Positions 5,415 to 48,336 of a stretch of 48,336 bases of DNA are shown here, in pieces. The translations under genes were made by a program, and so were the position numbers. Within the stretch, counting starts at the first letter, position 1. Each line of letters starts with the position of its first letter. The notes beneath the pieces are model-generated. The model searched no databases, was not told where the DNA came from, and worked only from the letters and a program-made list of their open reading frames with translations. The stretch is from the IMG/VR virus record IMGVR_UViG_2874968258_000013. One strand, given 5' to 3'. This DNA comes from a virus (lineage: Duplodnaviria; Heunggongvirae; Uroviricota; Caudoviricetes).

Positions 5415-5444
5415 ATCATCCACCCAATTGGTAATGACTCCAAC

Positions 5445-11192: not shown

Positions 11193-11262
11193 AATTACCT
11201 CTCGCTTTTCTGCAATAAAAAAGGCGTCATTCCTGACGCCATTTATTGGGGTTATAAATATT

Positions 11263-14200
11263 TCAACGAATACTGATGCCGGAAGCCGCTTTTTTGGTCA
11301 CAATCACCGTACAGTCGGTGATATTGCCTGCCCCCTGATTGCCTTTCTGGAAAATCTTAAACTCCAGAGTGACGCTACCACCACCACTAGGCATATCAAT
11401 AACTGCACTGTAACTACCGGGAATGGCACCTTTAGTTTCTCTGGATGCGATTAATACGCCGTTTTTGCGAACTTCAAAACCATAACCCGTGTATCGCGTG
11501 CCTCCTGGGTTATTTCCGCTCCCCGGATCGTCATACGCTATACCGTTAAAAATAATGGGCGGAATAATAATCTGGCGGTCAAAGTTATGATCATCGCTTA
11601 TGGTGACTGTAACCGTCCCGTTTGGTGTTTCCGTGTTACCCCACGTACCAGCCTGTTTCGGAAATGATTTGGATACAGCTTTAACGAAGTCACCTCTGAC
11701 CTGAGTCGCCTCCAGCATGCCCTTAATCGTACAGTTTTCATTTACCGTGACATTGTTGAGCGTCCCGGCGTTCGCATTCACACTGCCACTGATATCCGCA
11801 TTTTTAGCGGTCAGCTTTCCGTCCGGAGTCAGGGAAAATGCCGATGGATTTCCACCGCTGGTAATGGTGGGGGCCGTCAGGCGTTTCAGGAACACGTCGT
11901 TCATGAATATCTGATCGCCCTGACCAACAAACATCGGTTTTGTGTTGCCATTCGCAGGATTAACCATCGCAATCCTGTCCGCCGCCAGCAGCACCTGACT
12001 CTGCATGCCGTCAGGGGTGTTCTCAATACCGGCACCAATACCCGCGATATAAAGGCGTCCGTCCTGCATCTGCTGCAGCTTCACAGCCCACATGCTGTTC
12101 AGGTTATTATTTGTATCAACCTGAACCTTCTGTATCTGCTGAATTGCCGCACTCTGGTCTTCCAGTTTCTTATTGACGGTCTGCGTGATTTCATTGCTGA
12201 CATCCGTAATGGACGTCCTGATTTCAGCCAGGTCAGGCGCAAGCTGACCGTTATCAATCTGCGTCCACAGCTCCTGAGCCAGATGGGTTTTCCCTATCTC
12301 GCCTTTGAAAAAATCCAGATAACCGGATGCATCATCACTCGGCTGACCGACAGCCTCCACGAATGCCGATTTGCCAACGGTGTTCACACTGCGGATATAA
12401 AAGTAATAATCATGGCCCGGTTTGATATTGATACTGGCGGCTATCCAGTACAGCGCCGTGCCAAGATAGCGTGCTGTGGTTTCAACCTGCCTGATATCCG
12501 CAATCCGCTTTTCCGAGAACCAGAACTCAAACTGTACCGTCGGATCATAAACCGCAAGATGCGGCGTGGCGGTTATCTGAAAATAGCCCGGCGTCAGCTC
12601 AATCCGCGACAGCGCTGCCGGTGCGGCAATCCGGAACGATACCGACGCCGGATCGCCCTGCTGCCCCCACGCATTTACTGCCCGGACTGTCAGCCTGTAG
12701 TTCCCCAGCGCCAGTTGTGTGAAGCGGTAAGTGGTTTCCGTCGTCCGGGCCGTGCTGACCAGCCGCTCACTGCCGTCATCCGCTGTTACGGTCAGACGGA
12801 GCAGGAAGCTCACGCCCTTCACCACCTTCGGCGTGTCCCAGCGCGCCAGCACCTGATATTCCCCGCTGTCTGCGGTGACTTCGGCAGTCAGGTGCTGCAC
12901 CGCTGGCGGCGTGACACCATTCACCGTGCCGCTCTGGTCGCCGTCAAAGTGCGCCCCGTTATCCACGATGGCTTCTTTTTCCGGCACATGCTGCACGGCG
13001 GTGATGGCATACGTGCCGTCGTCGTTCTCACGGATACTCACGCAGCGGAACAATCGCTGGTGCAGCGTCGGCAGCTTCAGCCCCCACACGCTGTATTCAG
13101 CAACACCGTCAGGAACACGGCTCACTTTTACCTTCACGCCGTCGGTGACGGACTGGACCTCCACGCTGACCGGATTCCCCTGCCCGTCAACCAGGCTTAT
13201 CAGCGTGGTGCCGGAGGATGGCAGCGTGATTTCACGGTCGAGCGTCAGCGTCCGGGTCTGGCTGTTCACCGCCAGCACGCGCCCGCCGGTGCGGATACCG
13301 GCATAGTCATCATCGCAGATTTCAATGACATCGCCCGGTACATGACGAAGCCCTTCAGCACCCACGCTGAAATCCACGGTCTGCGTCTCCAGCAGTTCCG
13401 TTTTAATCAGCCACAGCCCGGCGCGGTGTGCCTGCCCCCGGCTGGTACAGCCAAAGGCATCCATCTTCGTGACGTTACGACCGTAACGGACAATGGCCTG
13501 CGTATCCTCCACAAGCTCTGTCGCCGTCTCCCAGCCGTTATCCGGGTCAATCCAGTTCACCTCAACGGCATTATGGCGGTCTTTCAGGGCGCTGAAACTG
13601 TAGCGGAACGGCGCGCCATCATCCGGCATCACCACATTACTGCGGTTATAGGCCCACACCTTATCCGACTGTCGGTCCTGCACGAACGTCAGCGTCTGCC
13701 CGTTCCATACCGGCATACAGCGCATCGCCGAGCAGAAATCACTGAGCACATCCCACGCCTTGCGCTGTGTGGTCAGCCAGGCATTACAGGTGATGCGCGG
13801 CTCCGTGCTGCCAAAGCCGTCCGGCACCGACTGGTCACAGTACTGGCCGATGACATACAGCGCCCATTTATCCACATCTGCCGCACCAAGACGTTTCCCC
13901 ATGCCATAGCGCGGATGGGTCAGCATATCCCACAGACACCAGGCCATGTTGTTGCTGTATGCCGGTTTTAACGTTCCGTCCCAGATACCGCTGTATTGCC
14001 GCGTCTGCGGATTATAGTTCGACGGCACCTGCAGAATGCGCCCGCGAAGATGATAATTACGGCTCACCTGCTGGCTGCCGAACTGCTCCGAATCCACCTG
14101 TACGCCGACCAGTGCCGTGTTCGGGTAGCACTGTTTCACATCGATGATTTCGGTGTATGACGACCAGAGCGTTTTGTTCTGCAGCTGGTCTGTGGTGCTG

Positions 14201-14760
14201 TCCGGCGTCATTCTGCGCATCCGGATATTAAACGGGCGCGGCGGCAGGTTATCCACCACCACCGAGGCCAGATACTGCGAGGTGGTTTTGCCCTTAATGG
14301 TGATGTCTTTTTCCGTCACCCAGCCACCGTTACGCTGTATCTGAACCAGCAGGCGAACTTCAGACGGATTCCTGTCTCCCTTTGAGGTGGTTTCCACCAG
14401 TGCCTGTACACCGAAGGTAAAACGCAGTCGGTCAATGTTTGCCGACGTGATGGTCCGGGTGATCGGCGTGTCATATTTCACTTCCGTACCCAGCACCGTC
14501 TCGGAGCCGGAGGATTCAAATCCCTCCGGCGGTGACTGCTCCTGCTCACCTGCCCGGAACACCACCGTGACGCCGGAGATGTTGGTATTCCCCTCACTGT
14601 CCAGCACCGGCGTACTGTTCAGCAGCACGCTTTTTAATCCATCCACCGGACCTTCAACCGGCCCTTCGCTGATGGCATCGATCACACTCAGCAGCTGCGT
14701 GGACTTCAGGTTGTCCTTCGCTTCGCGCGGGGTATGCCCCTTACTGCTGCCTTTACCCAT
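11263..14760 (-). CDS. J: tail tip / host specificity protein J
   Basis: 1165 aa, N-terminal 900+ aa recalled as near-identical to lambda J. Confidence 0.92.
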
Positions 14761-14820
14761 TCGTCATGCTCCATAAACGATAAAACCGCCCGGAGGCGAT
14801 TTCACATAAAACATTTTGCA

Positions 14821-15492
14821 TCAGCGACCAATCACCACAACCTGACCACCGTCCCCTTCGTCTGCCGTGCTGATCTCCTGAGATACCACACGTGACCCCA
14901 CGCGCATTTCACCATACAGAACAGGCATAACATTGCCCTGGGCAACCATGTTATCCAGTGAGGAGAAATAGATGTTCTGCTTACCGTTATCCGTTGTCTG
15001 TGTGCGGGGAGTTCTGGCTTTCGGTGCCAGCATCTGAGCCACACCGCCGAGCACCATACTGGCACCGAGAGAAAACAGAATGCCGGTCATACCACCGGCA
15101 CCAATGGCAGCCCCCCATGCTGCAAGGGTGGCTCCGGCGGTAAAGAATGATCCGGCAATGGCGGCTGCTCCCAGGACAATCTGGAATACACCACCTGACT
15201 TGGCCCCGGCGACTCTGGGAACAATATGAATCACAGCGCCGTCAGGCAGAGCCTCATGTAACTGCGCCGTTAATCCGGACGTGCTAACATCCTGCCCGGC
15301 AATACGCACCTGATACCAGCCGTCGCTCAGCTTCTGACGAAACGCAGGGAGCTGTGTGGCCATCGCCCGGATGGCTTCGGCACCCGTTTTCACACGAAGG
15401 TCGATGCGGCGGCCAAATCGTTGCAAATCCCCGTAAAGGCAGATGCGTGCCATGCCCGGTGACGCCAGAGGGAGTGTGTGCGTCGCTGCCAT
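14821..15492 (-). CDS. I: tail assembly protein I
   Basis: 223 aa MAATHTLPLASPGMARICLYGDL..., lambda I-like. Confidence 0.9.
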   Translation of the reverse strand: MAATHTLPLASPGMARICLYGDLQRFGRRIDLRVKTGAEAIRAMATQLPAFRQKLSDGWYQVRIAGQDVSTSGLTAQLHEALPDGAVIHIVPRVAGAKSGGVFQIVLGAAAIAGSFFTAGATLAAWGAAIGAGGMTGILFSLGASMVLGGVAQMLAPKARTPRTQTTDNGKQNIYFSSLDNMVAQGNVMPVLYGEMRVGSRVVSQEISTADEGDGGQVVVIGR

Positions 15493-16133
15493 TTGTCGGT
15501 ATACCTCTCTCGTTTGCTCAGTTGTTCAGGAATATGGTGCAGCAGCTCGCCGTCACCACAGTAAATGGCGGCATGATTCGGCACCGATGAACCAAAACAG
15601 CACAGCAGCACATCGCCCGGCTGCGCCGCTGACAACGGCACCTGATACAGCCCTGTGGCCTCCAGATTATCCAGATAGAGATTCTGACCGTGACGCCACC
15701 AGTCATCCTCACGATGAAAATCCGGCATCTCAATCCCCGCCAGATGGTAAGCATCCCGGAACAGCGTGTAACAGTCCGTCACCCCGTGCTCAAAGCGCCG
15801 CCCGGTAAGATGTGGCACACAGCGGAACTTGTGAATCGCCCCCCGGCAGACCAGCCACCACGGCAAATCACTCTGCACCTGCAGCCGCCGGTCGGCCTCA
15901 CTCAGCCAGGGCAGACCACCGGGGTGGCTGTGGACCAGTGCCACAATCTCACCCTGCATCTCTGCCTGCAGCCAGTCTTCCGGCGACATACGGAAATACG
16001 CCTCCGGCTCACCGGAGATATTCACGCAGGGGAAATATCTTTCCCCCTCCGGCGTTCTTACCACGAAGCCGCACGACTCCGCTGGAGCACATCGCCGGGC
16101 GTGCGCCAGAATCGCTGATTCTGTCTCTGTCAT
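15390..16133 (-). CDS. K: tail tip assembly protein K (JAMM/MPN plus NlpC/P60 domains)
   Basis: HSHPGG...SEAD JAMM motif and Cys-containing NlpC/P60 region; ORF opens right after L; classical 199-aa lambda K start would be the internal Met at 15989. Confidence 0.85.
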   Translation of the reverse strand: MTETESAILAHARRCAPAESCGFVVRTPEGERYFPCVNISGEPEAYFRMSPEDWLQAEMQGEIVALVHSHPGGLPWLSEADRRLQVQSDLPWWLVCRGAIHKFRCVPHLTGRRFEHGVTDCYTLFRDAYHLAGIEMPDFHREDDWWRHGQNLYLDNLEATGLYQVPLSAAQPGDVLLCCFGSSVPNHAAIYCGDGELLHHIPEQLSKRERYTDKWQRRTHSLWRHRAWHASAFTGICNDLAAASTFV

Positions 16134-30463: not shown

Positions 30464-30697
30464 ATGTCAACGAAGAACAGAACCCGCAGAACAACAACCC
30501 GCAACATCCGCTTTCCTAACCAAATGATTGAACAAATTAACATCGCTCTTGTTCAAAAAGGGTCCGGGAATTTCTCAGCCTGGGTCATTGAAGCCTGCCG
30601 CCGGAGACTGTGCTCAGAAAAAAGAGTTTCGCCTGAAGCAAACAAAGAAAAGAGTGACATTACTGAATTGCTCAGAAAACAGGTTAGACCAGATTGA
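30464..30697 (+). CDS. ribbon-helix-helix (Arc/CopG-like) DNA-binding protein, lambda right-end ORF homolog
   Basis: 77 aa; N-terminal region recalled as matching the ORF at the right end of lambda (complementary strand). Confidence 0.6.
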   Translation: MSTKNRTRRTTTRNIRFPNQMIEQINIALVQKGSGNFSAWVIEACRRRLCSEKRVSPEANKEKSDITELLRKQVRPD

Positions 30698-30739
30698 AGC
30701 AATTTAGATAATCGTGCAGACTACGCCCCCTCATATCAC

Positions 30740-31165
30740 ATGGAAGGTACTACAATGGCTCAGGTTGCCATTTTTAAACAAATATTCGATAAAGTGCGAA
30801 ATAATTTAAACTATCACTGGTTTTATTCTGAACTAAAACGTCACAATGTCTCACATTACATTTACTATTTAGCCACAGAGAATATTCATCTTGTTCTTGA
30901 AAACGATAATACGGTTTTAATAAAAGGACAGGGTAAGGTTGTAAATGTAAGATTTTCAAAAAATAAATGCCTTATAGAAGCCACCTTAAAAGGATTCAAA
31001 TCAGGAGAGTTATCATTTTACGAATACAGGAAAAATCTTGCTACAGCAGGGGTTTTCAGATGGATTACAAATATCCACGAAAACAAAAGGTATTACTATA
31101 CCTTTGATAATTCATTACTCTTTACTGAGAACATACAGAACACTACACAAATATTTCCGCACTAA
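30740..31165 (+). CDS. hypothetical prophage protein (possibly YbcV/DUF1398-like)
   Basis: 141-aa AT-rich ORF between cos and lysis genes; family assignment is a guess from position. Confidence 0.4.
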
Positions 31166-31344
31166 ATCATAACGTCCGGTTTCTTCCGTGCCAGAACCGG
31201 ACTCGCTGGCATGATGAAATATGTGTACCCGGTAACCCCGGTGTGCATCGTTTTTGATTATTCCCGCACACTCGCGCAGAAGGAGTTCCCCGTCGGGCTA
31301 CGGTCTCTGTTAATACGGGAATACGGCGACGATTGGATTTGCCC

Positions 31345-32250
31345 CTATATTTCCAGACATCTGTTATCACTTAACCCATTACAAGCCCGCTGCCGCAGAT
31401 ATTCCCGTGGCGAGCGATAACCCAGCGCACTATGCGGATGCCATTCGTTATAATGCTCGAACGCCTCTGCAAGGTTCTTTGCTGCCGTTAACCCGTCTGG
31501 TTTGGGCATGATACTGATGTAGTCACGCTTTATCGTTTTCACGAAGCTCTCTGCTATTCCGTTACTCTCCGGACTCCGCACCGCCGTGTTCTTCGGTTCA
31601 AGTCCCAACATCCGGGCGAACTGGCGTGTTTCATTAGCCCGGTAGCATGAACCATTATCCGTCAGCCACTCCACTGGAGACGACGGAAGATCGTTGCCGA
31701 AGCGGCGTTCCACCGCTCCCAGCATGACGTCCTGTACTGTTTCACTGTTGAAGCCGCCGGTAGTCACCGCCCAGTGCAGTGCCTCACGATCACAGCAGTC
31801 CAGCGCGAACGTGACACGCAGTCTCTCTCCGTTATCACAGCAGAACTCGAACCCGTCAGAGCACCATCGCTGATTGCTTTCTTTCACGGCCACTCTGCCT
31901 GTATGTGCCCGTTTCGATGGCGGTACAGCAGGTTTTCGCTCAAGCAACAGCGCATTCTGGCGCATGATCCGGTAAACACGTTTGGCATTGATCGCAGGCA
32001 TACCATCAAGTTCTGCCTGTCTGCGAAGCAGCGCCCATACCCGACGATAACCATACGTGGGCAGCTCTCCGATAACATGGTGTATACGGAGAAGCACATC
32101 CGTATCATCAGTGTGACGACTGCGGCGGCCATCCATCCAGTCATCGGTTCGTCTGAGAATGACGTGCAACTGCGCACGCGACACCCGGAGACAACGGCTG
32201 ACTAAGCTTACTCCCCATCCCCGGGCAATAAGGGCGCGTGCGCTATCCAC
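31345..32250 (-). CDS. insD: IS2 transposase OrfB (InsD)
   Basis: 301 aa DDE transposase, overlaps insC in -1 frame. Confidence 0.92.
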
Positions 32251-32618
32251 TTTTTTGCCCGTCCATATTCAACGGCTTCTTTGAGGAGTTCATTTTCCAT
32301 CGTTTTCTTGCCGAGCAGGCGCTGGAGTTCTTTAATCTGCTTCATGGCGGCAGCAAGTTCAGAGGCAGGAACAACCTGTTCTCCGGCGGCGACAGCAGTA
32401 AGACTTCCTTCCTGGTATTGCTTACGCCAGAGAAATAACTGGCTGGCTGCTACACCATGTTGCCGGGCAACGAGGGAGACCGTCATCCCCGGTTCAAAGC
32501 TCTGCTGAACAATTGCGATCTTTTCCTGTGTGGTACGCCGTCTGCGTTTCTCCGGCCCTAAGACATCAATCATCTGTACTCCAATGACTAGTCTAAAAAC
32601 TAGTATTAAGACTATCAC
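32208..32618 (-). CDS. insC: IS2 transposase OrfA (InsC)
   Basis: 136 aa [24 protein letters not shown]... Confidence 0.92.
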
Positions 32619-33089
32619 TTATTTAAGTGATACTGGTTGTCTGGAGATTCAGGGGGCCAGTCTAACGATACAGCGCATGATGTGTCAGGCTTGAATACCT
32701 TTATCCTTTAAAAGGGATATCAGTTAAGTTATCCCGTGTAGGGTATAAGCCATTATCAAAGCCACTCTGTAGGGAATGGCTTTTGTGATGGCATCACTTA
32801 CTCTTTACGCTGCTATCCCACTCATCCCGGAATTTTGATGGGTTATTGAAACCTTCTGCTGACATAACAACTCCTTCAATGTTTGGCTGAAATTGGGATG
32901 TCTTTCCATCAGTCCGCCACCACAAAGAATCTTTTTTGCCATAAGGCAGGAGGTTCATCTTTCAGTGGCTGCCGGTGTTATTTCCCCACTTACTGGCTTG
33001 GGTTGTTTCGTGGTACTGCCGTTAACTGGTGGCCCAGAATAAATTCCGGTTTCATTATCAAGCCCACCCGTAAATGGGCTTTGTAATGG

Positions 33090-33347
33090 CTACTTCGCTT
33101 TTGCTTCCGCTCGCTTACGCCGGCGCTCTTCTTTCCTCTCGGCTTTTGCCATGTCCATGAATGCCTGCATGATCGAGTTCCGCATCATGTAGCTAACAAA
33201 GTGATGATTGACACAGCCGTTGAGGCGCAGCTGCTCGCCAAACTCATCCACCGAGGCCAATGCTTCCATCATGCCCTTCTCGCCTTTCATGAACTCTGAG
33301 AAGTCGCGCCCCGCTCTGGAGGCGCATTCAATAACATGATCACTCAT
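33090..33347 (-). CDS. hypothetical protein translationally coupled to the KilA-N gene
   Basis: 85 aa, basic C-terminus; ATGA stop/start overlap with upstream gene. Confidence 0.45.
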   Translation of the reverse strand: MSDHVIECASRAGRDFSEFMKGEKGMMEALASVDEFGEQLRLNGCVNHHFVSYMMRNSIMQAFMDMAKAERKEERRRKRAEAKAK

Positions 33348-33841
33348 CCCGGAAGCCCGGGGATCGTAATCTGCAGCTGGTTAGCCAGGGAGTTAATCTC
33401 AGCGACCAACACTGGCTTCGTATAGCGCCATGCTGCCAGCCCTTGTCCGCAGAAGCTCGCCATGTCTTTCTTCTGGTCAAATTCATGACATTTCATGTTG
33501 AGCTGCGCACTTAAGCTGTTGCGATGCTGAAGTTCTCCGGTGAAGTAGTCATCGAGGACTTTATAGGCCGCGTACTTGAACCCGGGGTTTAACCAAGCCG
33601 CATAATCGTAAGCAACAAACTTCCCGCCATATGTTCCACCGTGTACACCGCGCTCAGTAAAAACCACAGATTCGTGGTTTTTCTCCAGCTCGGCTAAGAA
33701 CTCTTTGGTCTGCTTGTTTCGCAGGTAGTGGTAAGGCGATTCAGATTCACTTTTACCACTGGCTTTCCACATATCAGTGAGGCAGATCATGCCATCTTCA
33801 CCGATACGAATTGGTTGATTGAAGAGGGTTAATGATTTCAT
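33344..33841 (-). CDS. KilA-N domain protein
   Basis: 165 aa; IRIGEDGMICLTDMWKASGK...TKEFLAEL pattern typical of KilA-N. Confidence 0.6.
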   Translation of the reverse strand: MKSLTLFNQPIRIGEDGMICLTDMWKASGKSESESPYHYLRNKQTKEFLAELEKNHESVVFTERGVHGGTYGGKFVAYDYAAWLNPGFKYAAYKVLDDYFTGELQHRNSLSAQLNMKCHEFDQKKDMASFCGQGLAAWRYTKPVLVAEINSLANQLQITIPGLPG

Positions 33842-34042
33842 AGCGTGTACCTACTCTTTGAAATGAACCTTTGCCGCACAGGAAACCAGCCCACCGAGGC
33901 TCGCCAGCACTAACTGGTATCCTCAAAGGCCCATTCCAAAGGGGCAGGTTCGGTGTAAAAAACATGCGTTGCGGTACGCATTTATTGCAAAAAGCCCCGC
34001 ATCGCGAGGCTCATTAAATGGACTTTGTGATTTGCAAAAAAA

Positions 34043-34501
34043 TTATTTCAGGCATTGCGTCCTGATGTATTCCTGCAGGTAGTTAACCTGCGCGGTTATC
34101 TTGTCGATTCCACTTCGGAGACGGTAATAATTGAGTTCAGCATCTGCTGTAAGTCCTGGGCTTTCTCCATCGCCCATGCCGCTGGCTCCGGTCGTTGACT
34201 TTGCACAGGTGGCGGCGACTTGCAGGCGCTTACGCCCAGCAGAAACATCAGCACGGAGACTTTCGATAGTCGCGTTAGCATCAGCAAGCTCCTTTATGTA
34301 TCTTGCGTCGAGTTCTGCTACATCACGTTGACGCTTCCGCATGTCAGCGATGGTGGCGTTCGCCTTCTCCAGTTCACTGGCCTTGTTATCGCGCTGCTCT
34401 TTGTAGGCGATTGCGTTATCACGGTAATGATTAACAGCCAATGACAGGCAGACGATGATGCAGATAACCAGAGCGGAGATAATCGCGGTTACTCTGCTCA
34501 T
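34043..34501 (-). CDS. Rz: i-spanin Rz
   Basis: 152 aa from [20 protein letters not shown]; N-terminal TM plus coiled coil; overlaps R stop. Confidence 0.88.
34096..34287 (-). CDS. Rz1: o-spanin Rz1 (embedded in Rz, +1 frame)
   Basis: 63-aa ORF with lipobox LLGVSAC and Pro-rich region nested inside Rz. Confidence 0.75.
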
Positions 34502-35345: not shown

Positions 35346-35455
35346 CGGCGGGTTTAAGCTGTGTGACGAAGTAACCACTCTTAACAGCATAACCAATTTT
35401 GGTGATGCTGCCAACTTACTGATTTAGTGTATGATGGTGTTTTTGAGGTGCTCCA

Positions 35456-35731
35456 GTGGCTTCTGTTTCTATCAGCTGTCCCTCCTGTTCAGCTACTGAC
35501 GGGGTGGTGCGTAACGGCAAAAGCACTGCCGGACATCAGCGCTATCTCTGCTCTCACTGCCGTAAAACATGGCAACTGCAGTTCACTTACACCGCTTCTC
35601 AACCCGGTACGCACCAGAAAATCATTGATATGGCCATGAATGGCGTTGGATGCCGGGCAACTGCACGCATTATGGGCGTTGGCCTCAACACGATTTTACG
35701 TCACTTAAAAAACTCAGGCCGCAGTCGGTAA
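35456..35731 (+). CDS. insA: IS1 InsA
   Basis: 91-aa ORF within IS1. Confidence 0.92.
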
Positions 35732-36153
35732 CCTCGCGCATACAGCCGGGCAGTGACGTCATCGTCTGCGCGGAAATGGACGAACAGTGGGGCTATGTCG
35801 GGGCTAAATCGCGCCAGCGCTGGCTGTTTTACGCGTATGACAGTCTCCGGAAGACGGTTGTTGCGCACGTATTCGGTGAACGCACTATGGCGACGCTGGG
35901 GCGTCTTATGAGCCTGCTGTCACCCTTTGACGTGGTGATATGGATGACGGATGGCTGGCCGCTGTATGAATCCCGCCTGAAGGGAAAGCTGCACGTAATC
36001 AGCAAGCGATATACGCAGCGAATTGAGCGGCATAACCTGAATCTGAGGCAGCACCTGGCACGGCTGGGACGGAAGTCGCTGTCGTTCTCAAAATCGGTGG
36101 AGCTGCATGACAAAGTCATCGGGCATTATCTGAACATAAAACACTATCAATAA
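35650..36153 (+). CDS. insB: IS1 InsB
   Basis: 167-aa ORF within IS1. Confidence 0.9.
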
Positions 36154-36558
36154 GTTGGAGTCATTACCCCAATTTTTTACGTACGTAAACCACTAAATGA
36201 TATTTGCGAGAATGCTACCGAGTATTGAAAACACCACTACAAATACATAAGCAAATCCCAACAAATAACCAACAAATAATTTCCAGTGTTATTTTTAGCC
36301 GGTTTAAATTGAACCTTCAAATTATAGAGCACTTATAAATAACAGCCGTTAATATAAATTGGCTAATAGATTTATTTTTATTCAGCCAAGAGCCATGAAT
36401 AGGATTCGATAGAAAAAAGTTCAGATAAAAATAGAGATCTACTTCACAAATCAAACGAGAAACCAAAACTTACATCTTGAAATAATCACATTGATTAGAT
36501 GAATATTTATCGCGCAGTGACATCATTTTTTAATAATAGTTCAAAAAAAGGGCTCACG

Positions 36559-37641
36559 ATGAAAAAATTAACAGTGGCAATTTCTGCTGTAGCTGCATCA
36601 GTACTGATGGCGATGTCTGCTCAGGCAGCTGAAATTTATAATAAAGACAGTAACAAGCTGGATCTGTACGGGAAAGTTAATGCTAAGCACTACTTCTCCT
36701 CTAATGATGCAGATGATGGTGATACTACTTATGCCCGTCTTGGCTTCAAAGGTGAAACCCAAATCAACGATCAACTGACTGGTTTCGGTCAGTGGGAATA
36801 TGAATTCAAAGGCAACCGCGCTGAATCTCAAGGTTCCTCCAAAGATAAAACCCGTCTTGCCTTCGCTGGCCTGAAATTCGGTGACTACGGCTCCATCGAT
36901 TACGGCCGTAACTACGGTGTAGCATACGACATCGGTGCGTGGACTGACGTCCTGCCAGAATTCGGTGGTGACACTTGGACTCAAACAGATGTGTTCATGA
37001 CTGGTCGCACCACTGGTGTTGCAACTTATCGTAACAACGACTTCTTTGGTCTGGTTGATGGTCTGAACTTTGCTGCTCAGTATCAGGGTAAAAATGACCG
37101 CACTGACGTAACTGAAGCTAATGGTGATGGTTTCGGTTTCTCCACTACTTATGAGTATGAAGGATTCGGTGTAGGTGCAACCTATGCTAAATCTGACCGC
37201 ACTAATAATCAGGTTATCTACGGTAACAACAGCCTGAATGCATCTGGTCAAAATGCTGAAGTATGGGCAGCTGGTCTGAAATATGATGCGAACAACATCT
37301 ATCTGGCTACCACCTATTCTGAAACCCAGAACATGACTGTTTTTGGTAATAACCATATTGCCAACAAAGCACAAAACTTCGAAGTAGTTGCACAATATCA
37401 GTTCGACTTCGGTCTGCGTCCGTCCGTTGCTTACCTGCAATCTAAAGGAAAAGACTTGGGTGCGTGGGGTGATCAGGACCTGGTTGAATATATTGATGTA
37501 GGTGCAACCTATTACTTCAACAAAAATATGTCCACTTTTGTTGATTACAAAATCAACCTGATTGATAAGAGCGATTTCACGAAAGCATCTGGCGTTGCTA
37601 CCGATGATATCGTTGCTGTAGGTATGGTTTACCAGTTCTAA
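36559..37641 (+). CDS. nmpC: prophage-encoded general porin (NmpC/Lc-like, OmpC family)
   Basis: 360 aa from [23 protein letters not shown]; 16-strand porin signature ending ...VAVGMVYQF; apparently intact coding frame. Confidence 0.88.
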
Positions 37642-37770
37642 TTTGATTACTAAAAGATATGTTGCGGGAGGCTTTGCCTCCCCAACATATAAGTGGCTCC
37701 CTCAAGCCACTTCCTTTAGGAGCACAACCTTGCTTCTAACTATATAAACCTTCTGTTATATATTACCCTT

Positions 37771-37803
37771 TATTTTTGGGGGCGTTGCAACGCCCCATTT
37801 TTA
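37771..37803. terminator. bidirectional rho-independent terminator between convergent nmpC and Q
   Basis: TTTTT-GGGGCGTTGCAACGCCCC-ATTTTT palindrome. Confidence 0.65.
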
Positions 37804-37829
37804 ATAATTTTTAGTAAACAATTGGCATA

Positions 37830-38213
37830 TTAATTAGAGTTATTAACAACGATATCCATCTCTAACCGGATATCTAATGCCATTAACATCCCTTCAATTA
37901 TGCCCTCAGCCTTCTGTAACCTTTTCCCGATATAACCATCAGAGCAGCAATGCTTACCTGCCAGTGACATGAATGTCATACCGACTACATAATAATCTAC
38001 TAATAAATCGTGCAAATCGCTGTTGTTCTTTTTCAGACGGGCCATGTACCCGCAAATAATCATCGCGTCATCGTCACAACATTGCGGGCGAGATTTTACT
38101 TTTGAAGTAATTAATCCCTTAAAACCGGCGGCAATGGACGACCAGGTCACATCTTCATGATTATTAGCCGCCCACGCTCCCCAACGCTCAAGAACCATCT
38201 GAATATCACGCAT
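37830..38213 (-). CDS. quuD: late gene antiterminator Q (DLP12 QuuD-like)
   Basis: 127 aa from [24 protein letters not shown]... Confidence 0.85.
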
Positions 38214-38298
38214 CAACTTACTCCACAAAAATCAGACCAGAACGCCAATTACAAGCAAAAATCAACAAAACAGTATTAGTTGATTGTTATCTCTGACT

Positions 38299-38439
38299 TC
38301 ATACTCCTGCTCCTGTCAGGGTTTTGGCGTAATTCTTCAGTATTCGGTAATCGGTCAAAACAGAACCGGGGAAACGATATAAGCGCAGATGCCCCCAGCG
38401 GTGGCGAAGAAGTTCTGCCATATAAAACTCAAACATCAT
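38299..38439 (-). CDS. ylcG: small protein YlcG
   Basis: 46-aa [49 protein letters not shown] translated by hand; below ORF-track size cutoff. Confidence 0.7.
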
Positions 38440-38798
38440 TCATTCCCCATTTCGGTGATGGTCAGTTCCAGCCTCCCACCTTTGGTAACAGGCATCTTCA
38501 CAACGCGGTAATCAACGACCTGAGCATCATCCAGCCAGAAACCTGCTTTGGTGAGTGCGTCAAAAGCGGCTTTTTGCAGATTATCCAGGTCACGGCGACG
38601 GCGATCCGGCATGTGGCACTCAATACGGATTTTCACTGGCATAGCCAGGCCGATATCCAGCATTGCGTTTTTAATGATTCGGGTGACGTTATCGCGGTAT
38701 GCCTGCCCTTCTGCGCTGATGTGTGTGCGCCCGCGATTATGGCGGTAATAGCGGTTATTGCTCGGAGGCCAGGGTAATGTGATGCTGTAGGTATTCAC
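38436..38798 (-). CDS. rusA: Holliday junction resolvase RusA
   Basis: 120 aa, recalled RusA sequence. Confidence 0.88.
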
Positions 38799-39085
38799 GC
38801 CTTAATAACCCCCTCTTTCAGCCAGATAACCTGCGTTCTCGCCATACCTTCCAGCGCGCATTCTTTTGCATACTCAGCATCGACAAAATATGTGCGGCGG
38901 TCGATTTCGTCGTGACAGGCAGAACATGCAATGGTGGCAATCAGGTCTGGCGGTTTGATACCGGTACCGCACAATCCAGCCAGCCGGATATGTGCCAGTA
39001 CTGACGTTTCAGGATTGCCATTACATACGCCAGGGATTCTTACCTGGCATTCCCGACCACGCGCTGCTTTTCTCAAATCAGCCAT
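38795..39085 (-). CDS. ybcO: YbcO (DUF1364) putative nuclease
   Basis: 96 aa from [20 protein letters not shown]; Cys-rich. Confidence 0.8.
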
Positions 39086-39248
39086 GATTCCTCCTTGCTG
39101 CCAGTCGCAACCATTTTTTATCAACCAGGCTAGCGGTATATCCGAGCAGTGTTGGTATTTCGGATGGCTTCAGCTCAGGCTTACGCTTACGACGATTTGA
39201 TACTCTGTAGATGTGCCCGTTCATGACACGAATAAGCGGTGTAGCCAT
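39078..39248 (-). CDS. ninE: NinE
   Basis: 56-aa [59 protein letters not shown] translated by hand; TAATG overlap with ybcN stop. Confidence 0.75.
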   Translation of the reverse strand: MATPLIRVMNGHIYRVSNRRKRKPELKPSEIPTLLGYTASLVDKKWLRLAARRNHG

Positions 39249-39703
39249 TACGCCTCCTGCTTATCGCGCAGCTGCTGGTATTCACAGCTCTGCGGAATTG
39301 TCAGGTGGCAGCCGATATTCATCGCCCAGGCTTCGACTTTGCACAGGAAGATGTACATCTCGCCGGTTTCCAGCTCTGACGTATGGCGGAGGGATTGGAC
39401 GGTGGTGACCTCGCCGGACACGACATCTACACGGTCTTTGCTTTCGTAGCCGAGATAGGTGTGCTTCATCGCGTCTTTGACCCACTCAGGCGTAGCGAAG
39501 GTCTTGCCGCGGGCGATGAGATATTCGCTGATCTCCGTGTACCACATGTGGCTGAGCGCGTTCTGCGACAGGCTGCGCTTCTCGCGCCACGGCTTAACCT
39601 GCAGGCGTAAGCATTGCCCGGCATCCAGCAATGGCTGAATCTGCTGGCCGATGGCCGCGAAGTTACCGCGATGGAGTTTGATGCCGTCTACTGGCAGAGT
39701 CAT
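39248..39703 (-). CDS. ybcN: YbcN (DLP12-type nin-region protein)
   Basis: 151 aa, recalled YbcN sequence. Confidence 0.82.
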   Translation of the reverse strand: MTLPVDGIKLHRGNFAAIGQQIQPLLDAGQCLRLQVKPWREKRSLSQNALSHMWYTEISEYLIARGKTFATPEWVKDAMKHTYLGYESKDRVDVVSGEVTTVQSLRHTSELETGEMYIFLCKVEAWAMNIGCHLTIPQSCEYQQLRDKQEA

Positions 39704-39967
39704 ACGGCCTCCCTAACGGAAACCGCAGAATGCAGAAAATCGCAGGTGCATTTCTGCATCTGTGACAAGGTGATGAGTTCAGATTGTGGTCGCATTTAAG
39801 TCCCCTTAAATGCGCAGAAGTCACCGGAGTTGTTCAGGCTCCGATGAGAGGATTATGGCGGATTGATTACGATAAATCAAAACTATCTTGAAGCCAAAAC
39901 AGTGATCTTCGCTTTAAAAACCTTGTATACTTTCACCTAATCACAGCCAGAACTATGGATCTAACCA

Positions 39968-40345
39968 ATGACCAACAAAGAAAACAAAGATAAATATATT
40001 AACAAGTTCAAGAAAGAGCTTTCAAAATATATACAACCAACTGCTGGAGTGGACATTCAATTATTTAACTCTAAGGATGGTGGTGGTGTAATTAAAGCCA
40101 CTTTGAATAGAAGTGGAAAAAGAAAATCATCTATTGCTGGTAATTTTACTAAATTAGGTGAGGCAATTACCTCGAGTGGGCAGAGGGTTTTTGGTGGTGA
40201 TCTATCAAATGTGAATTTTTACGGAACAAATACGATTTTTGATGGAGATACAATATTTTTAATTAAATCACCTGATTCAGAGGAGTGGTCATCACAAAAA
40301 GCTTCCAAAGACGTAGAGGGCATCGTATTTGGAGGGAAAAAATGA
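39968..40345 (+). CDS. hypothetical soluble protein (125 aa, Gly/Lys-rich), first gene of a low-GC two-gene cassette
   Basis: AT-rich ORF with no recognisable family; stop overlaps next start (ATGA). Confidence 0.55.
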   Translation: MTNKENKDKYINKFKKELSKYIQPTAGVDIQLFNSKDGGGVIKATLNRSGKRKSSIAGNFTKLGEAITSSGQRVFGGDLSNVNFYGTNTIFDGDTIFLIKSPDSEEWSSQKASKDVEGIVFGGKK

Positions 40346-40770
40346 TTAACATTACTACTAAGGATGGCACTCAAGTCAGTGGTGAAGTAAGAGATCTAGT
40401 AATTCTTCTTGAAACTGATGGAAAAACGGTGTCTGATTATTTGCAGCCAATCCCTCCCAAAAAAGATACACACTGGAGCATGATTTTCATTCCGGTAGCA
40501 ATTTATATACTACTTAATCTTGTATACATTATTGCTCACCCATTATTTCCTGAAAAATATCTAAAAACATCAACATCTATATTTCTATTCATTTCCTTCA
40601 TATTAAGTGCAATAGTAGCATATTTTGTTTTCCATAAGCATAAATCTGCCACTCTATCCATATGCAGCTTAGTGTTCTTAGTGTTAATTGTAGGTGCTAA
40701 CGTAGGGTTTATCAGTTACAGCGACCTAACACAAAAAGCGACGCAAAAATTAGATAGTTTGTCTAAATAA
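40342..40770 (+). CDS. hypothetical small membrane protein (142 aa, soluble N-terminal 45 aa plus 3 predicted TM helices)
   Basis: hydrophobic stretches WSMIFIPVAIYILLNLVYII, SIFLFISFILSAIVAYFVF, LSICSLVFLVLIVGANVGFI; followed by hairpin 40778-40798. Confidence 0.55.
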   Translation: MINITTKDGTQVSGEVRDLVILLETDGKTVSDYLQPIPPKKDTHWSMIFIPVAIYILLNLVYIIAHPLFPEKYLKTSTSIFLFISFILSAIVAYFVFHKHKSATLSICSLVFLVLIVGANVGFISYSDLTQKATQKLDSLSK

Positions 40771-40932
40771 TTATGTTGCCATGCGAAGTATGCATGGCTG
40801 CATGTCTGCCTTCCATTTAAAATGGGCTAAGACCTATAACCCTAAATATTATTCTTTATTATCTTCTTTACCACTTCGGTGATGCTGCCAACTTACTGAT
40901 TTAGTGTATGATGGTGTTTTTGAGGTGCTCCA

Positions 40933-41108
40933 GTGGCTTCTGTTTCTATCAGCTGTCCCTCCTGTTCAGCTACTGACGGGGTGGTGCGTAACGGCAAAAG
41001 CACTGCCGGACATCAGCGCTATCTCTGCTCTCACTGCCGTAAAACATGGCAACTGCAGTTCACTTACACCGCTTCTCAACCCGGTACGCACCAGAAAATC
41101 ATTGATAT
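40933..41108 (+). pseudogene. insA: IS1 insA truncated by IS21 insertion
   Basis: InsA frame diverges after ...QKIID at the IS21 junction. Confidence 0.85.
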
Positions 41109-41209
41109 TGTCAGCGCCAGTGATATAAGACGGTAATTCGCCATTTGGATTGTCCGCTCCACCCAACATGTTGTTTCCTTAAGGTTCTCACACCAGAAAG
41201 GACATCAAC

Positions 41210-43179
<1,970 letters not shown>

Positions 43180-43260
43180 CGAAAGTATTTAGCGGGCATG
43201 AAAATGGCAAATAACGGTCAAACATCGTGGCGTTGACAATATGGCCATGAATGGCGTTGG

Positions 43261-43764
43261 ATGCCGGGCAACTGCACGCATTATGGGCGTTGGCCTCAAC
43301 ACGATTTTACGTCACTTAAAAAACTCAGGCCGCAGTCGGTAACCTCGCGCATACAGCCGGGCAGTGACGTCATCGTCTGCGCGGAAATGGACGAACAGTG
43401 GGGCTATGTCGGGGCTAAATCGCGCCAGCGCTGGCTGTTTTACGCGTATGACAGTCTCCGGAAGACGGTTGTTGCGCACGTATTCGGTGAACGCACTATG
43501 GCGACGCTGGGGCGTCTTATGAGCCTGCTGTCACCCTTTGACGTGGTGATATGGATGACGGATGGCTGGCCGCTGTATGAATCCCGCCTGAAGGGAAAGC
43601 TGCACGTAATCAGCAAGCGATATACGCAGCGAATTGAGCGGCATAACCTGAATCTGAGGCAGCACCTGACACGGCTGGGACGGAAGTCGCTGTCGTTCTC
43701 AAAATCGGTGGAGCTGCATGACAAAGTCATCGGGCATTATCTGAACATAAAACACTATCAATAA
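43261..43764 (+). CDS. insB: IS1 InsB (copy 3)
   Basis: 167-aa ORF in the right part of the split IS1. Confidence 0.85.
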
Positions 43765-43779
43765 GTTGGAGTCATTACC

Positions 43780-43841
43780 CGCTTGCAGTAACGGCGAAAG
43801 GGGCAATGACAGCGCTGCCATGTCGACAAGAACTGGAATAG
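43780..43841 (+). pseudogene. cscK: 3' terminal fragment of fructokinase gene cscK
   Basis: frame (A)LAVTAKGAMTALPCRQELE-stop begins at the IS1 junction; continues the cscK fragment at 48117-48336. Confidence 0.7.
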
Positions 43842-43912
43842 TGAGAAGTAAACGGCGAAGTCGCTCTTATCTCTAAATAGGACGTGAATTTTTTAACGAC
43901 AGGTAGGTAATT

Positions 43913-45160
43913 ATGGCACTGAATATTCCATTCAGAAATGCGTACTATCGTTTTGCATCCAGTTACTCATTTCTCTTTTTTATTTCCTGGTCGCTGTGGT
44001 GGTCGTTATACGCTATTTGGCTGAAAGGACATCTAGGGTTGACAGGGACGGAATTAGGTACACTTTATTCGGTCAACCAGTTTACCAACATTCTATTTAT
44101 GATGTTCTACGGCATCGTTCAGGATAAACTCGGTCTGAAGAAACCGCTCATCTGGTGTATGAGTTTCATCCTGGTCTTGACCGGACCGTTTATGATTTAA
44201 GTTTATGAACCGTTACTGCAAAGCAATTTTTCTGTAGGTCTAATTCTGGGAGCGCTCTTTTTTGGCCTGGGGTATCTGGCGGGATGCGGTTTGCTTGACA
44301 GCTTCACCGAAAAAATGGCGCGAAATTTTCATTTCGAATATGGAACAGCGCGCGCCTGGGGATCTTTTGGCTATGCTATTGGCGCGTTCTTTGCCGGCAT
44401 ATTTTTTAGTATCAGTCCCCATATCAACTTCTGGTTGGTCTCGCTATTTGGCGCTGTATTTATGATGATCAACATGTGTTTTAAAGATAAGGATCACCAG
44501 TGCGTAGCGGCGGATGCGGGAGGGGTAAAAAAAGAGGATTTTATCGCAGTTTTCAAGGATCGAAACTTCTGGGTTTTCGTCATATTTATTGTGGGGACGT
44601 GGTCTTTCTATAACATTTTTGATCAACAACTTTTTCCTGTCTTTTATGCAGGTTTATTCGAATCACACGATGTAGGAACGCGCCTGTATGGTTATCTCAA
44701 CTCATTCCAGGTGGTACTCGAAGCGCTATGCATGGCGATTATTCCTTTCTTTGTGAATCGGGTAGGGCCAAAAAATGCATTACTTATCGGTGTTGTGATT
44801 ATGGCGTTGCGTATCCTTTCCTGCGCGCTGTTCGTTAACCCCTGGATTATTTCATTAGTGAAGCTGTTACATGCCATTGAGGTTCCACTTTGTGTCATAT
44901 CCGTCTTCAAATACAGCGTGGCAAATTTTGATAAGCGCCTGTCGTCGACGATCTTTCTGATTGGTTTTCAAATTGCCAGTTCGCTTGGGATTGTGCTGCT
45001 TTCAACGCCGACTGGGATACTCTTTGACCACACAGGCTACCAGACAGTTTTCTTCGCAATTTCGGGTATTGTCTGCCTAATGTTGCTATTTGGCATTTTC
45101 TTCCTGAGTAAAAAACGCGAGCAAATAGTTATGGAAACGCCTGTACCTTCAGCAATATAG
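43913..45160 (+). pseudogene. cscB: sucrose:H+ symporter CscB with in-frame premature stop (TAA at 44198-44200)
   Basis: two in-frame ORFs (43913-44200, 44291-45160) collinear with recalled CscB; ...LTGPFMI-stop-VYEPLLQ... Confidence 0.8.
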
Positions 45161-45600
45161 ACGTAAACTTTTCCGGTTGTTGTCGATATCTCCCTATCCC
45201 TCAACCGGAAAATAATAATACTAAAGTGCTTAGCCCGGCTAATAATCACCTAATCCAAACGCCTCATTCATGTTCTGGTACAGTCGCTCAAATGTACTTC
45301 AGATGCGCGGTTCGCTGATTTCCAGGACATTGTCGTCATTCAGCGACCTGTCCCGTGTATCACGGTCCTGCGAATTCATCAAGGAATGCATTGCGGAGTG
45401 AAGTATCGAGTCACGCCATATTTCGCTATCAGGATTCTGTGTGATGGTTACATCGCCCGGCCCAGGGCTGTTTAGTCATCAGCGCTTTCTGACAGTGCTG
45501 AGATTTCAACCTGTTGCAGTAAAAATGAGTAGATATAAGGCAAGTGTGCTGCCAAACCCATCTTTTACGGGGTGAAGGTAGATTTCGTTTGAAGGGTATC

Positions 45601-45615
45601 TGGTGTCCCCTGCAG
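45601..45615 (-). repeat. second copy of argW 3' end (att core, 15 bp CTGCAGGGGACACCA), inverted relative to argW
   Basis: exact 15-mer identity with 2635-2649 on the opposite strand. Confidence 0.75.
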
Positions 45616-45688
45616 ACATCTACTTGAGGCGGCAGGGGATTGATTGGAATGCTGTTTTTTAGATTTGAAAAATATTTTACCCGCTATT

Positions 45689-45889
45689 TTACCCATTGGC
45701 GCGGCTTAAGAGCTTATTTTTGAATTCACAATGGTCACGATATAACCATCTTGCTCGTCCGTGGATAACTTTGGCTTTAGGCAGGTCGCCGGACTTAATC
45801 CGGTCATAGATGAAGGTCTTACCGAAGCCAGTATCAGCCATGATGAATTTCAAATCAACCAGTGAATCAGGTTGTAGTTCGTGTTGCAT
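45689..45889 (-). CDS. AlpA-family phage/island transcriptional regulator (small HTH protein)
   Basis: 66 aa; LVDLKFIMADTGFGKTFIYDRIKSGDLPKAKVIHGRARWL resembles AlpA/Phage_AlpA motif. Confidence 0.65.
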   Translation of the reverse strand: MQHELQPDSLVDLKFIMADTGFGKTFIYDRIKSGDLPKAKVIHGRARWLYRDHCEFKNKLLSRANG

Positions 45890-46011
45890 GAGTGCTATCT
45901 CCGAATATGGAATCGAACCTGCAAATCAGGCAATAAAAAGCCGCATTGATGCAGCAATGGTAGGTCTGGATATCTTGAGAAATGAACAGGCCTCATCGAG
46001 TGTGAGGCGGG

Positions 46012-46356
46012 TTAGTCCTTGCGTAGCTCGCTGATTCTTCTGTAAGTCTCTGGTGCTTTGTTCCCGTACGTCTTCATTTCAGACTTCAACAGAGCAACGA
46101 GTGAATCCCATTCGTTGAGGATTCCTTTGAATGCCGGAACGCGCTTTGCAACCTTGTCGAATGAATCTCTGATTTCTGGAATCTGCTCAACAAGTGCAAC
46201 GCATCGCCGAAAGTCTGCTGCGTCATGGGGAGCGCCGAAGTGATGACCATAGATATTCTTTTTCAGGCCACATGCGATTGAGGCAAGAGTTGCGCTACTG
46301 ATGCCGACATCGCCAGTTGATTGCCATTTCAAAACCTTCATAGCCAAATCTGACAT
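46012..46356 (-). CDS. hypothetical protein (114 aa)
   Basis: ORF upstream of and co-oriented with the AlpA-like gene; no recognisable family. Confidence 0.45.
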   Translation of the reverse strand: MSDLAMKVLKWQSTGDVGISSATLASIACGLKKNIYGHHFGAPHDAADFRRCVALVEQIPEIRDSFDKVAKRVPAFKGILNEWDSLVALLKSEMKTYGNKAPETYRRISELRKD

Positions 46357-46597
46357 TTCTTGTCTCCATAAAACAAAACTCGCCGTAGCGAGCTCAGATA
46401 AAAGAAATCCCCGTCAGTGCGAGGATGCTGTTCATTGCTGCTATACACTTTTTTGCTCTCAACGTAAGCGGTAGCCCATTCTGTTGGGTTGGTCAGTTGC
46501 TTTTAGGAAATGCTCTTTACCCCTTAAACGTCGGCTGAAAGAGCTAAAATCCATGCAAAAAATTTACGCAATTTTGTGTATTATTGTGCAGTAAGTA

Positions 46598-47200
46598 ATG
46601 AGCTATTTTCTGTGCAAAAAATGGATGATAAATTTGTCCGGGGCAGGAAAAATTTTATGGGCGCTAAACATGAAAAAAGATTCGTATCCTTATTTGATTT
46701 GCATGACAGTTTCAGGGCTGATCTTTATTTTCCTTTTCTTCTGGTGGCGGGCAGATATCTACAGGGTCACGTTTCTTAATCAGAGTATATCCCACTATTA
46801 CATTCTGTTTAGCATGGGAATAGCTTTTCTGTTATCTCTGTTTTGGGTTAAGAAGGGGATAGTAAAACAAAGCGGCTGGAAGAGTCTGTCAGCATACCTT
46901 AAGGTTTATGCAGGGATATGCATATTTTCTGGATTTTTTCTGATTATACCCCTTACAACACTAACTTATTTTTTGCCTGGAGAGACATCGTCTTATGTTG
47001 CACCGTATCGGTATACTTCCGGTAGTTCAAAAAGTTGTTCTGGAGCTGAGGTGGATGACCCCGATCTACATGAGAATATTCGCATTTGCTATCCGTATGG
47101 CAATTATGAGTACGATAATATTATCTATGTTGAAAAGAAAATTAATACATTAGGTGCGGTAGTGACATATGCACAGACCGCGCGTGATGATACTGAATGA
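46598..47200 (+). CDS. hypothetical membrane protein (3 predicted TM helices plus about 75-aa C-terminal soluble region)
   Basis: AT-rich ORF; true start may be an internal Met (about 46670); divergent from the 114-aa gene. Confidence 0.45.
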   Translation: MSYFLCKKWMINLSGAGKILWALNMKKDSYPYLICMTVSGLIFIFLFFWWRADIYRVTFLNQSISHYYILFSMGIAFLLSLFWVKKGIVKQSGWKSLSAYLKVYAGICIFSGFFLIIPLTTLTYFLPGETSSYVAPYRYTSGSSKSCSGAEVDDPDLHENIRICYPYGNYEYDNIIYVEKKINTLGAVVTYAQTARDDTE

Positions 47201-47363
47201 GATAGTATATAGCGGGCAAGTTTTAGTTAATTTATCGAGGTAATATAATTTACCTCGACTCGTTTATTCTGGTATGAATATTTCGCTTTACGATCGATTT
47301 TTATCTGATGATATCATGCGGTTTTCATATACTGACTTACTGTCTTTTGGTAATGACTCCAAC

Positions 47364-47867
47364 TTATTGATAGTGTTTTATGTTCAGATAATGCCCGATG
47401 ACTTTGTCATGCAGCTCCACCGATTTTGAGAACGACAGCGACTTCCGTCCCAGCCGTGCCAGGTGCTGCCTCAGATTCAGGTTATGCCGCTCAATTCGCT
47501 GCGTATATCGCTTGCTGATTACGTGCAGCTTTCCCTTCAGGCGGGATTCATACAGCGGCCAGCCATCCGTCATCCATATCACCACGTCAAAGGGTGACAG
47601 CAGGCTCATAAGACGCCCCAGCGTCGCCATAGTGCGTTCACCGAATACGTGCGCAACAACCGTCTTCCGGAGACTGTCATACGCGTAAAACAGCCAGCGC
47701 TGGCGCGATTTAGCCCCGACATAGCCCCACTGTTCGTCCATTTCCGCGCAGACGATGACGTCACTGCCCGGCTGTATGCGCGAGGTTACCGACTGCGGCC
47801 TGAGTTTTTTAAGTGACGTAAAATCGTGTTGAGGCCAACGCCCATAATGCGTGCAGTTGCCCGGCAT
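47364..47867 (-). CDS. insB: IS1 InsB
   Basis: 167-aa ORF within IS1. Confidence 0.9.
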
Positions 47868-48061
47868 CCAACGCCATTCATGGCCATATCAATGATTTTC
47901 TGGTGCGTACCGGGTTGAGAAGCGGTGTAAGTGAACTGCAGTTGCCATGTTTTACGGCAGTGAGAGCAGAGATAGCGCTGATGTCCGGCAGTGCTTTTGC
48001 CGTTACGCACCACCCCGTCAGTAGCTGAACAGGAGGGACAGCTGATAGAAACAGAAGCCAC
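47786..48061 (-). CDS. insA: IS1 InsA
   Basis: 91-aa ORF within IS1. Confidence 0.92.
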
Positions 48062-48116
48062 TGGAGCACCTCAAAAACACCATCATACACTAAATCAGTA
48101 AGTTGGCAGCATCACC

Positions 48117-48336
48117 CTGCAAGCGCTCCGCAACGTTGAGCGAGATCGATAATTCGTCGCATTTCTCTCTCATCTGTAGATAATCCCGTAGAGGACAGAC
48201 CTGTGAGTAACCCGGCAACGAACGCATCTCCCGCCCCCGTGCTATCGACACAATTCACAGACATTCCAGCAAAATGGTGAACTTGTCCTCGATAACAGAC
48301 CACCACCCCTTCTGCACCTTTAGTCACCAACAGCAT
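48117..48336 (-). pseudogene. cscK: fructokinase gene cscK truncated by IS1 (5' part continues beyond window end)
   Basis: frame ...MLLVTKGAEGVVVCYRGQ...DLAQRCGALA runs into the IS1 terminal repeat; ribokinase-family GAGD motif. Confidence 0.8.

Follow-up and report, generated by a model that had tools for sequence, protein, structure and literature searches.

Probable IS1-bounded inversion of the attR end of a degraded lambdoid prophage at argW

The K-12 element KplE1 (CPS-53) carries one copy of a 16-nt core, CTGCAGGGGACACCAT, at either border; its gene order begins with intS and ends with torI, and its recombination module is also displayed by HK620, Sf6 and other argW phages (PMC2951348, PMC3509656). 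The attR copy of this core is annotated in K-12 as the pseudogene pawZ, which lies on the argW strand, 73 nt after torI. Site-specific recombinases are not confined to integration and excision: lambda Int, when presented with inverted att sites on laboratory substrates, generates an inversion instead of an excision, and Hin, Gin and Cin operate on natural invertible segments. Rearrangements of another kind are brought about by IS1, which classically causes adjacent deletions and inversions.

The 48,336-nt stretch of DNA analyzed here (the window; Table 1) was compared with these systems. A sequence-only reading had proposed that an inverted 15-bp copy of the argW 3′ end marks the far att site of an integrated element and that the segment carrying it was flipped after integration. 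We consider it very probable that this copy is the attR core of a degraded lambdoid argW prophage, and that the 3,569-bp block containing it was turned around between opposite IS1 copies, most likely by homologous recombination. Both the site and the mechanism are already known; an IS1-bounded inversion is an ordinary event, and no new mechanism is involved.

Table 1. Features of the window, its alignment to the reference prophage of JNEC-KY177 and the att junctions
Feature	Position	Strand	Basis or remarks
argW, tRNA-Arg(CCT), integration target	2575-2649	+	ARAGORN; same sequence as K-12 argW
attL core (B-O-P′)	2635-2649	+	With T2650, the full 16-nt KplE1 core CTGCAGGGGACACCAT
P′ arm and intS promoter region	2650-2810	+	GGGTAAAA-type arm-type motifs; ~97% identical to K-12 attL
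intS, intact 385-aa tyrosine integrase	2811-3968	+	Arm-binding, central and catalytic domains; annotated intS in relatives
IS1-a	5430-6197	-	No target duplication; junction common to E. coli F404 and others
Lambdoid late region (tail fibres, tail, head, terminase, lysis)	6198-35400	-	Collinear with reference
IS1-b	35401-36168	+	Simple insertion, 8-bp direct target duplication CCAATTTT
Prophage porin, quuD, rusA, ybcO, ninE, ybcN region	36169-40877	-	Ends at deletion junction with IS1-c
IS1-c, left boundary of inverted block	40878-41108 and 43239-43779	+	Split by IS21 at 41109-43238
Inverted 3,569-bp block	43780-47348		cscK 3′ end, cscB pseudogene, B′ flank, attR core, P arm, torI, two hypothetical genes
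IS1 target duplication copy 1, cscK	43780-43788	+	CGCTTGCAG, reverse complement of copy 2
cscB pseudogene	43913-45160	+	TAC to TAA at codon 96
B′ flank, native chromosome after argW in prophage-free genomes	45161-45600	-	attB reconstruction
attR core (P-O-B′), equivalent to K-12 pawZ	45601-45615	-	Exact, 15/15 against argW end
P arm	45616-45688	-	Two GGGTAAAAT arm-type motifs, 45674-45682 and 45686-45694
torI, intact 66-aa recombination directionality factor	45689-45889	-	DNA alignment to K-12 torI; RefSeq torI annotation
IS1-d, right boundary of inverted block	47349-48116	-	Identical to IS1-b
IS1 target duplication copy 2	48117-48125	-	CTGCAAGCG, first 9 bp of the cscK body at 48117-48336
cscK body, ancestral orientation	48117-48336	-	Alignment to JNEC-KY177
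Aligned to reference argW and intS	2574-3972	-	Alignment to JNEC-KY177
Aligned to reference late genes	6966-35400	-	Alignment to JNEC-KY177
Aligned to reference up to 15824	36169-40878	-	Alignment to JNEC-KY177
Aligned to reference 3000-6570	43780-47348	+	Alignment to JNEC-KY177
Aligned to reference 3008-2789	48117-48336	-	Alignment to JNEC-KY177
attB			...GATTC-core-GATACCC... (B-O-B′)
attL			...GATTC-core-TTTATCAG... (B-O-P′)
attR (reverse complement)			...AGATGT-core-GATACCC... (P-O-B′)

Both positions of the 15-mer CTGCAGGGGACACCA, at 2635-2649 (+) and 45601-45615 (-), were verified in the window, which holds no third copy even with two mismatches. The first is the exact 3′ end of argW, the single tRNA that ARAGORN finds in the window. 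The identity between the two copies spans exactly 15 nt, with C (argW) versus T (inverted copy) as the preceding base, and T (attL) versus G (inverted copy) as the following one. The earlier statement that a chance 15-mer match is very unlikely survives only in a restricted form. When all 15-mers of the window except those in IS elements were counted, two apparently random inverted pairs were found, against ~1.6 expected by chance in 48 kb, a background that would suit the match being fortuitous, or a piece of an unrelated conserved element, with no att site involved. For CTGCAGGGGACACCA, the expectation is 9e-5, and the match owes its significance solely to the prior choice of this 15-mer as a tRNA end with an integrase gene behind it; the statement thus holds for the pre-specified tRNA end but not for 15-mers at large. 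Against a fortuitous match also stand the position of the 15-mer, exactly at the cscB-torI junction where phage homology stops, the possibility of rebuilding attB from it and the agreement of the published and annotated cores. In light of the attB reconstruction, the K-12 alignment and the phage-homology endpoint at the core, we reject a chance match or unrelated element as exceedingly improbable.

The surroundings of the inverted site are those of an attR. To its left is cscB (sucrose permease) and to its right torI, a junction that is present in 110 genomes according to a BLAST search of 44600-46600 against 5,426 complete E. coli genomes. The reverse complement of 45480-45900 aligns base for base with K-12 torI, the P arm and the core, and the match runs to the final base of the 15-mer; beyond the core, K-12 runs into its dsdC side and the window into its csc side. 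Homology to the phages HK620, Sf6 and Kapi1 stops exactly at 45601, where HK620 and Sf6 annotate their 16-nt attP core. Toward the chromosome, a synthetic attB, made by joining argW 2350-2649 to the reverse complement of 45301-45600, was recovered in one unbroken piece with 99.7% identity, and a coverage of at least 80% is reached in 1,415 genomes. Thus, the comparison with argW regions of prophage-free E. coli that the sequence-only reading had recommended returns an empty, uninterrupted attB in more than 1,400 genomes, among them WCHEC020031 (yfdC-argW(+)-cscB(-)-cscK(-)-cscA(+)-cscR(-)). In the rebuilt attB, argW is followed by GATACCCTTCAAACG..., and the 16th base of the attR core is G, as in attB and as predicted for a P-O-B′ junction. 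The alignment gives B-O-B′ for attB, B-O-P′ for attL and P-O-B′ for attR. The inverted copy is thus a genuine attR in reverse and, on sequence grounds, a complete one, comprising the cscB-side chromosome, the core, the P arm with its arm-type sites and torI.

Of the recombination module, intS and torI are both intact. The attL region (2570-2830) shows ~97% identity to K-12 attL, and the adjoining IntS displays the Arm-DNA-bind_3, Phage_int_M and Phage_integrase domains. For the arm-type motif GGGTAAAAT, four occurrences stand against 0.43 expected, and three of them are inside the att arms, the second P-arm motif reaching 6 nt into the 3′ end of torI. As in K-12, 73 nt separate the torI stop codon from the core, and this region also aligns base for base with HK620 and Sf6. 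As TorI gave no match to Pfam at E < 0.001, it was identified by DNA alignment to K-12 torI and by the RefSeq torI annotation of the matching regions. The proposed far att site is therefore upheld by a core equal to the published one, by the P arm and torI on one side and by native argW-downstream chromosome on the other. The earlier reading had held that finding the 15-mer within a longer conserved element would speak against an att duplication; it does lie within one, but only in a trivial sense, as that element is the torI-attP recombination module. The core, the P arm with torI, a reconstructable attB and an IntS beside attL are all present, and the one sequence feature of an attR that is lacking is the direct-repeat orientation relative to attL, which was probably lost secondarily through the IS1-bounded inversion.

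The flanks of the 15-mer, which had been described as unrelated on both sides, are indeed so immediately around it; however, a second piece of argW lies close by. The T-arm 16-mer TTGCAGGTTCGATTCC (argW 2620-2635, directly upstream of the core in the tRNA) recurs exactly, and again inverted, at 45909-45924 (-). In the window as well as in K-12 KplE1, HK620 and Sf6, it precedes torI by 20 nt and the core by 293 nt, and in HK620 it falls inside an annotated cII-dependent "phage integration" promoter, where it overlaps the annotated cII box. This 16-mer may be left over from a longer tRNA-derived attP of the past, or be there by coincidence. Between a gene for a hypothetical protein of 114 aa and the T-arm 16-mer, the stretch 45925-46011 (-) translates to ...LDEACSFLKISRPTIAASMRLFIA*, without a start codon. 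The translation resembles the N-terminal helix-turn-helix of excisionase/AlpA-type proteins, and the stretch may be what is left of an earlier directionality-factor gene. A mosaic joint lies at 45944, above which HK620-like DNA gives way to HK022/HK97-like DNA.

Strain JNEC-KY177, whose lambdoid prophage lies intact between argW/intS on one side and torI/csc on the other, served as the reference. Across ~66 kb of alignment, the sole reversed piece is the block 43780-47348, and the minus-strand collinearity continues past the window through cscK, cscA and cscR in the source record. The claim that a segment was flipped after integration is hence supported and narrowed: only this block is reversed relative to collinear argW prophages, and inverted IS1 copies and a 9-bp duplication stand at its borders. 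In CEA224S, the block is matched at 99.5% in the direct layout intS(+)...torI(+)-cscB(-), and JNEC-KY177, CEA224S, K-12 and the empty-site genome are all collinear, that is, non-inverted. JNEC-KY177 also bears a second tyrosine integrase and a second prophage directly on the other side of argW, leaving the tRNA flanked by mobile elements on both sides.

A further difference from the reference adjoins the block. Reference 6571-15823 (~9.25 kb) is missing beside IS1-c and with it the early genes, from a TraR/DksA-family regulator gene and exo/bet/gam via the repressor to the replication genes. The gap represents an IS1-adjacent deletion. The sequence-only reading had noticed neither this loss of ~9 kb nor the IS1 brackets, nor that the orientation is documented by a single assembly.

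The block has oppositely oriented IS1 copies at its borders, IS1-c (+) ending at 43779 and IS1-d (-) starting at 47349, which are one SNP apart, the difference being private to IS1-c at IS1 position 658. At the right flanks of IS1-c and IS1-d, we found a 9-bp sequence in inverted copies, CGCTTGCAG and CTGCAAGCG, both corresponding to reference 3000-3008 within cscK. They are one IS1 target duplication that the inversion has parted. Opposite IS1 borders, a split 9-bp duplication and collinear relatives, three marks of an IS1-mediated inversion, are hence all present. The prophage-side junctions display no inverted target duplication (IS1-c is preceded on its left by ...TACCACTTC and IS1-d by ...CTGTCTTTT); therefore, an extra deletion step must be assumed, and the adjacent deletion would explain why the duplication is missing at this second junction pair. 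Movement of the block as a unit in a composite IS1 transposon was considered and rejected, because the outer flanks, TACCACTTC and CTGCAAGCG, have no duplication in common. IS1-c is itself interrupted by an IS21 element of 2,130 bp at 41109-43238 (+), with istA (390 aa), istB (265-266 aa), a 4-bp duplication ATAT and TGTCA...TGACA ends. A pre-formed IS1::IS21 composite was likewise rejected, as the IS21 and IS1 matches in IAI39-like genomes are separate elements.

We propose the following as the most likely history, in which insertion preceded homologous recombination. IntS would have integrated a lambdoid prophage with a KplE1/HK620-type IntS-TorI module at the argW 3′ end, yielding direct repeats, namely attL (argW-core-P′-intS) at 2635 and attR (torI-P-core-chromosome) beside the csc sucrose genes. 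The early region, ~9.25 kb in the reference prophage, would then have been lost in association with IS1-c, and IS1-d would have inserted into cscK, with the creation of a 9-bp target duplication. Homologous recombination between the opposite IS1-c and IS1-d could thereafter have flipped the 3,569 bp that contain the cscK 3′ end, cscB, attR and torI, and IS21 would have entered IS1-c at some point.

The same final structure could have been reached in a single step, if replicative intramolecular transposition of IS1-c into cscK made IS1-d, the inverted 9-bp duplication and the inversion together. The inverted duplication at the cscK junctions and the inverted IS1 pair are the exact product predicted for such an event, and the deletion adjoins IS1-c. 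However, IS1-d equals IS1-b while differing from IS1-c at position 658, which would call for a later mutation in IS1-c, and IS21 now sits inside IS1-c, so that the event would have to precede the IS21 insertion; moreover, once two inverted copies are present, homologous recombination between them is expected to be frequent. We regard this one-step route as possible but rather unlikely, being weakly disfavored by the identity of IS1-d with IS1-b and the private SNP of IS1-c, and retain insertion followed by homologous recombination.

Alternatively, the inversion might not be fixed in the organism, the assembler having mis-oriented the block or the culture being a mixture that flips via the IS1 repeats: the IS1/unique junctions are identical in both orientations, and only reads spanning the 541-768 bp of IS1 should decide between them. 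The un-flipped state would in addition be the simpler one, as IS1-d would be a plain insertion with a direct 9-bp duplication, and the locus is on one public contig only. The orientation is documented by one assembly, CP044191.1 (GCA_008727295.1), which is identical to the window over 14,424 bp and does not belong to the RefSeq complete E. coli set used for the searches. When 39500-48336 was compared to 5,426 complete E. coli genomes, no place covered more than 49% of it, and neither the inverted nor a pre-inversion arrangement was found in complete RefSeq E. coli genomes; therefore, no sister strain confirms the polarity. Among species-representative genomes, the IS1/cscK junction had 0 matches, and Res13-Lact-PEA14-20, a candidate for a pre-inversion relative, was rejected as its IS1 is at a different site. 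Against an artifact or a mixture, the source is a single contig of 5.04 Mb, which suggests long-read support, and such reads normally span a 0.8-kb repeat; further, the IS21 in IS1-c makes the left repeat distinguishable beyond 541 bp. We accordingly deem an inversion that is not fixed improbable.

The neighboring sucrose genes have suffered repeatedly. cscK is cut by IS1-d at nt 854-862, its pieces in the window being 43780-43841 and 48117-48336, and beyond the window it is cut again by an IS3-family element, with an IS4-family element between cscK and cscA. The premature stop in cscB is not one held in common with the empty-site genome WCHEC020031: it is at codon 99 there versus 96 in the window, and the two are independent.

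Elsewhere in the prophage, an IS2-like element of the IS3 family (31345-32618 (-); orfA of 136 aa and orfB of 301 aa) is lodged between the terminase and lysis regions, and a transposase fragment of the same family (rve) at 4265-4630 (+), near intS, is 74%-similar to it. The JNEC-KY177 prophage has nothing that corresponds to region 30627-34231, which contains DUF1398 and KilA-N/ORF11CD3 genes. IS1-a, with the flanks CACCCAATT and AGCCTTCTT, separates the 4265-4630 fragment from a tail-fibre assembly gene, and relatives annotate an AraC-family regulator beside the same IS1-a. Its junction is also found in E. coli F404, ETEC1746 and STEC409 and therefore reflects an older, shared rearrangement that has nothing to do with the flip of attR. 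With IS1, IS2-like, IS21, IS3-family and IS4-family elements at such density, the source may belong to a Shigella-like lineage or another with expanded IS content.

As attL and attR are now inverted relative to each other, IntS and TorI would be able to invert the intervening DNA but not to excise it. From what is known of tyrosine recombinases, we infer that the defective prophage is locked in place, the inverted att sites and the missing early genes together probably leaving it immobile. Conversely, intS and torI are intact and attL and attR face each other, so that the locus could act as an accidental invertible segment of ~43 kb driven by IntS and TorI, a prospect that we hold to be improbable. 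If it did, an excisive-type recombination would flip 2635-45615 and re-form attB (argW-core-csc flank) and attP (torI-core-intS) in cis, and IntS alone could reverse the ~43-kb flip. The prophage proper consists of 2650-40877 and 45616-47348, and the two parts enclose a 1.8-kb piece of csc chromosome. Prophage finders that look for att sites as direct repeats would overlook such a scrambled element or misplace its bounds. The locus thus offers a clean example of IS1 immobilizing a prophage, in which attR has been turned, the early genes deleted and the neighboring sucrose operon destroyed.

The closest comparison is with KplE1, which has in common with this prophage the argW target, 15 of the 16 published core nucleotides at attR and all 16 at attL, an attL that is ~97% identical, a near-identical P arm and torI, the placement of intS first and torI last, and the arm-type motifs. 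In K-12, 10.2 kb separate the two directly repeated cores and the element is still excisable (PMC2951348), whereas here they are inverted and ~43 kb apart. Unlike KplE1, the prophage described here has a lambdoid siphovirus-type cargo, and the chromosome past attR is csc rather than dsdC. The P22-like phages HK620, Sf6 and Kapi1 share the module of hkaC/gene 18 (TorI), attP core and int at 96-97% identity, with the T-arm 16-mer likewise 293 nt upstream of the core; however, theirs are free circular genomes with an intact attP (P-O-P′), which is split here into attL and attR, and the module is here joined to unrelated lambda-like structural genes. The inversion substrates of lambda Int and the Hin, Gin and Cin systems resemble the locus in having two cognate sites inverted on one molecule, with the recombinase and accessory genes intact. 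It departs from these systems in its accidental IS1 origin, in the 43 kb between the sites and in the missing early operon upstream of torI. Finally, with classical IS1 rearrangements and Shigella-type IS decay it shares the inverted IS1 pair, the split 9-bp duplication, the adjacent deletion and the further IS insertions, and the only point that sets it apart from classical IS1 inversions is that the flipped block holds an att site and a directionality factor.
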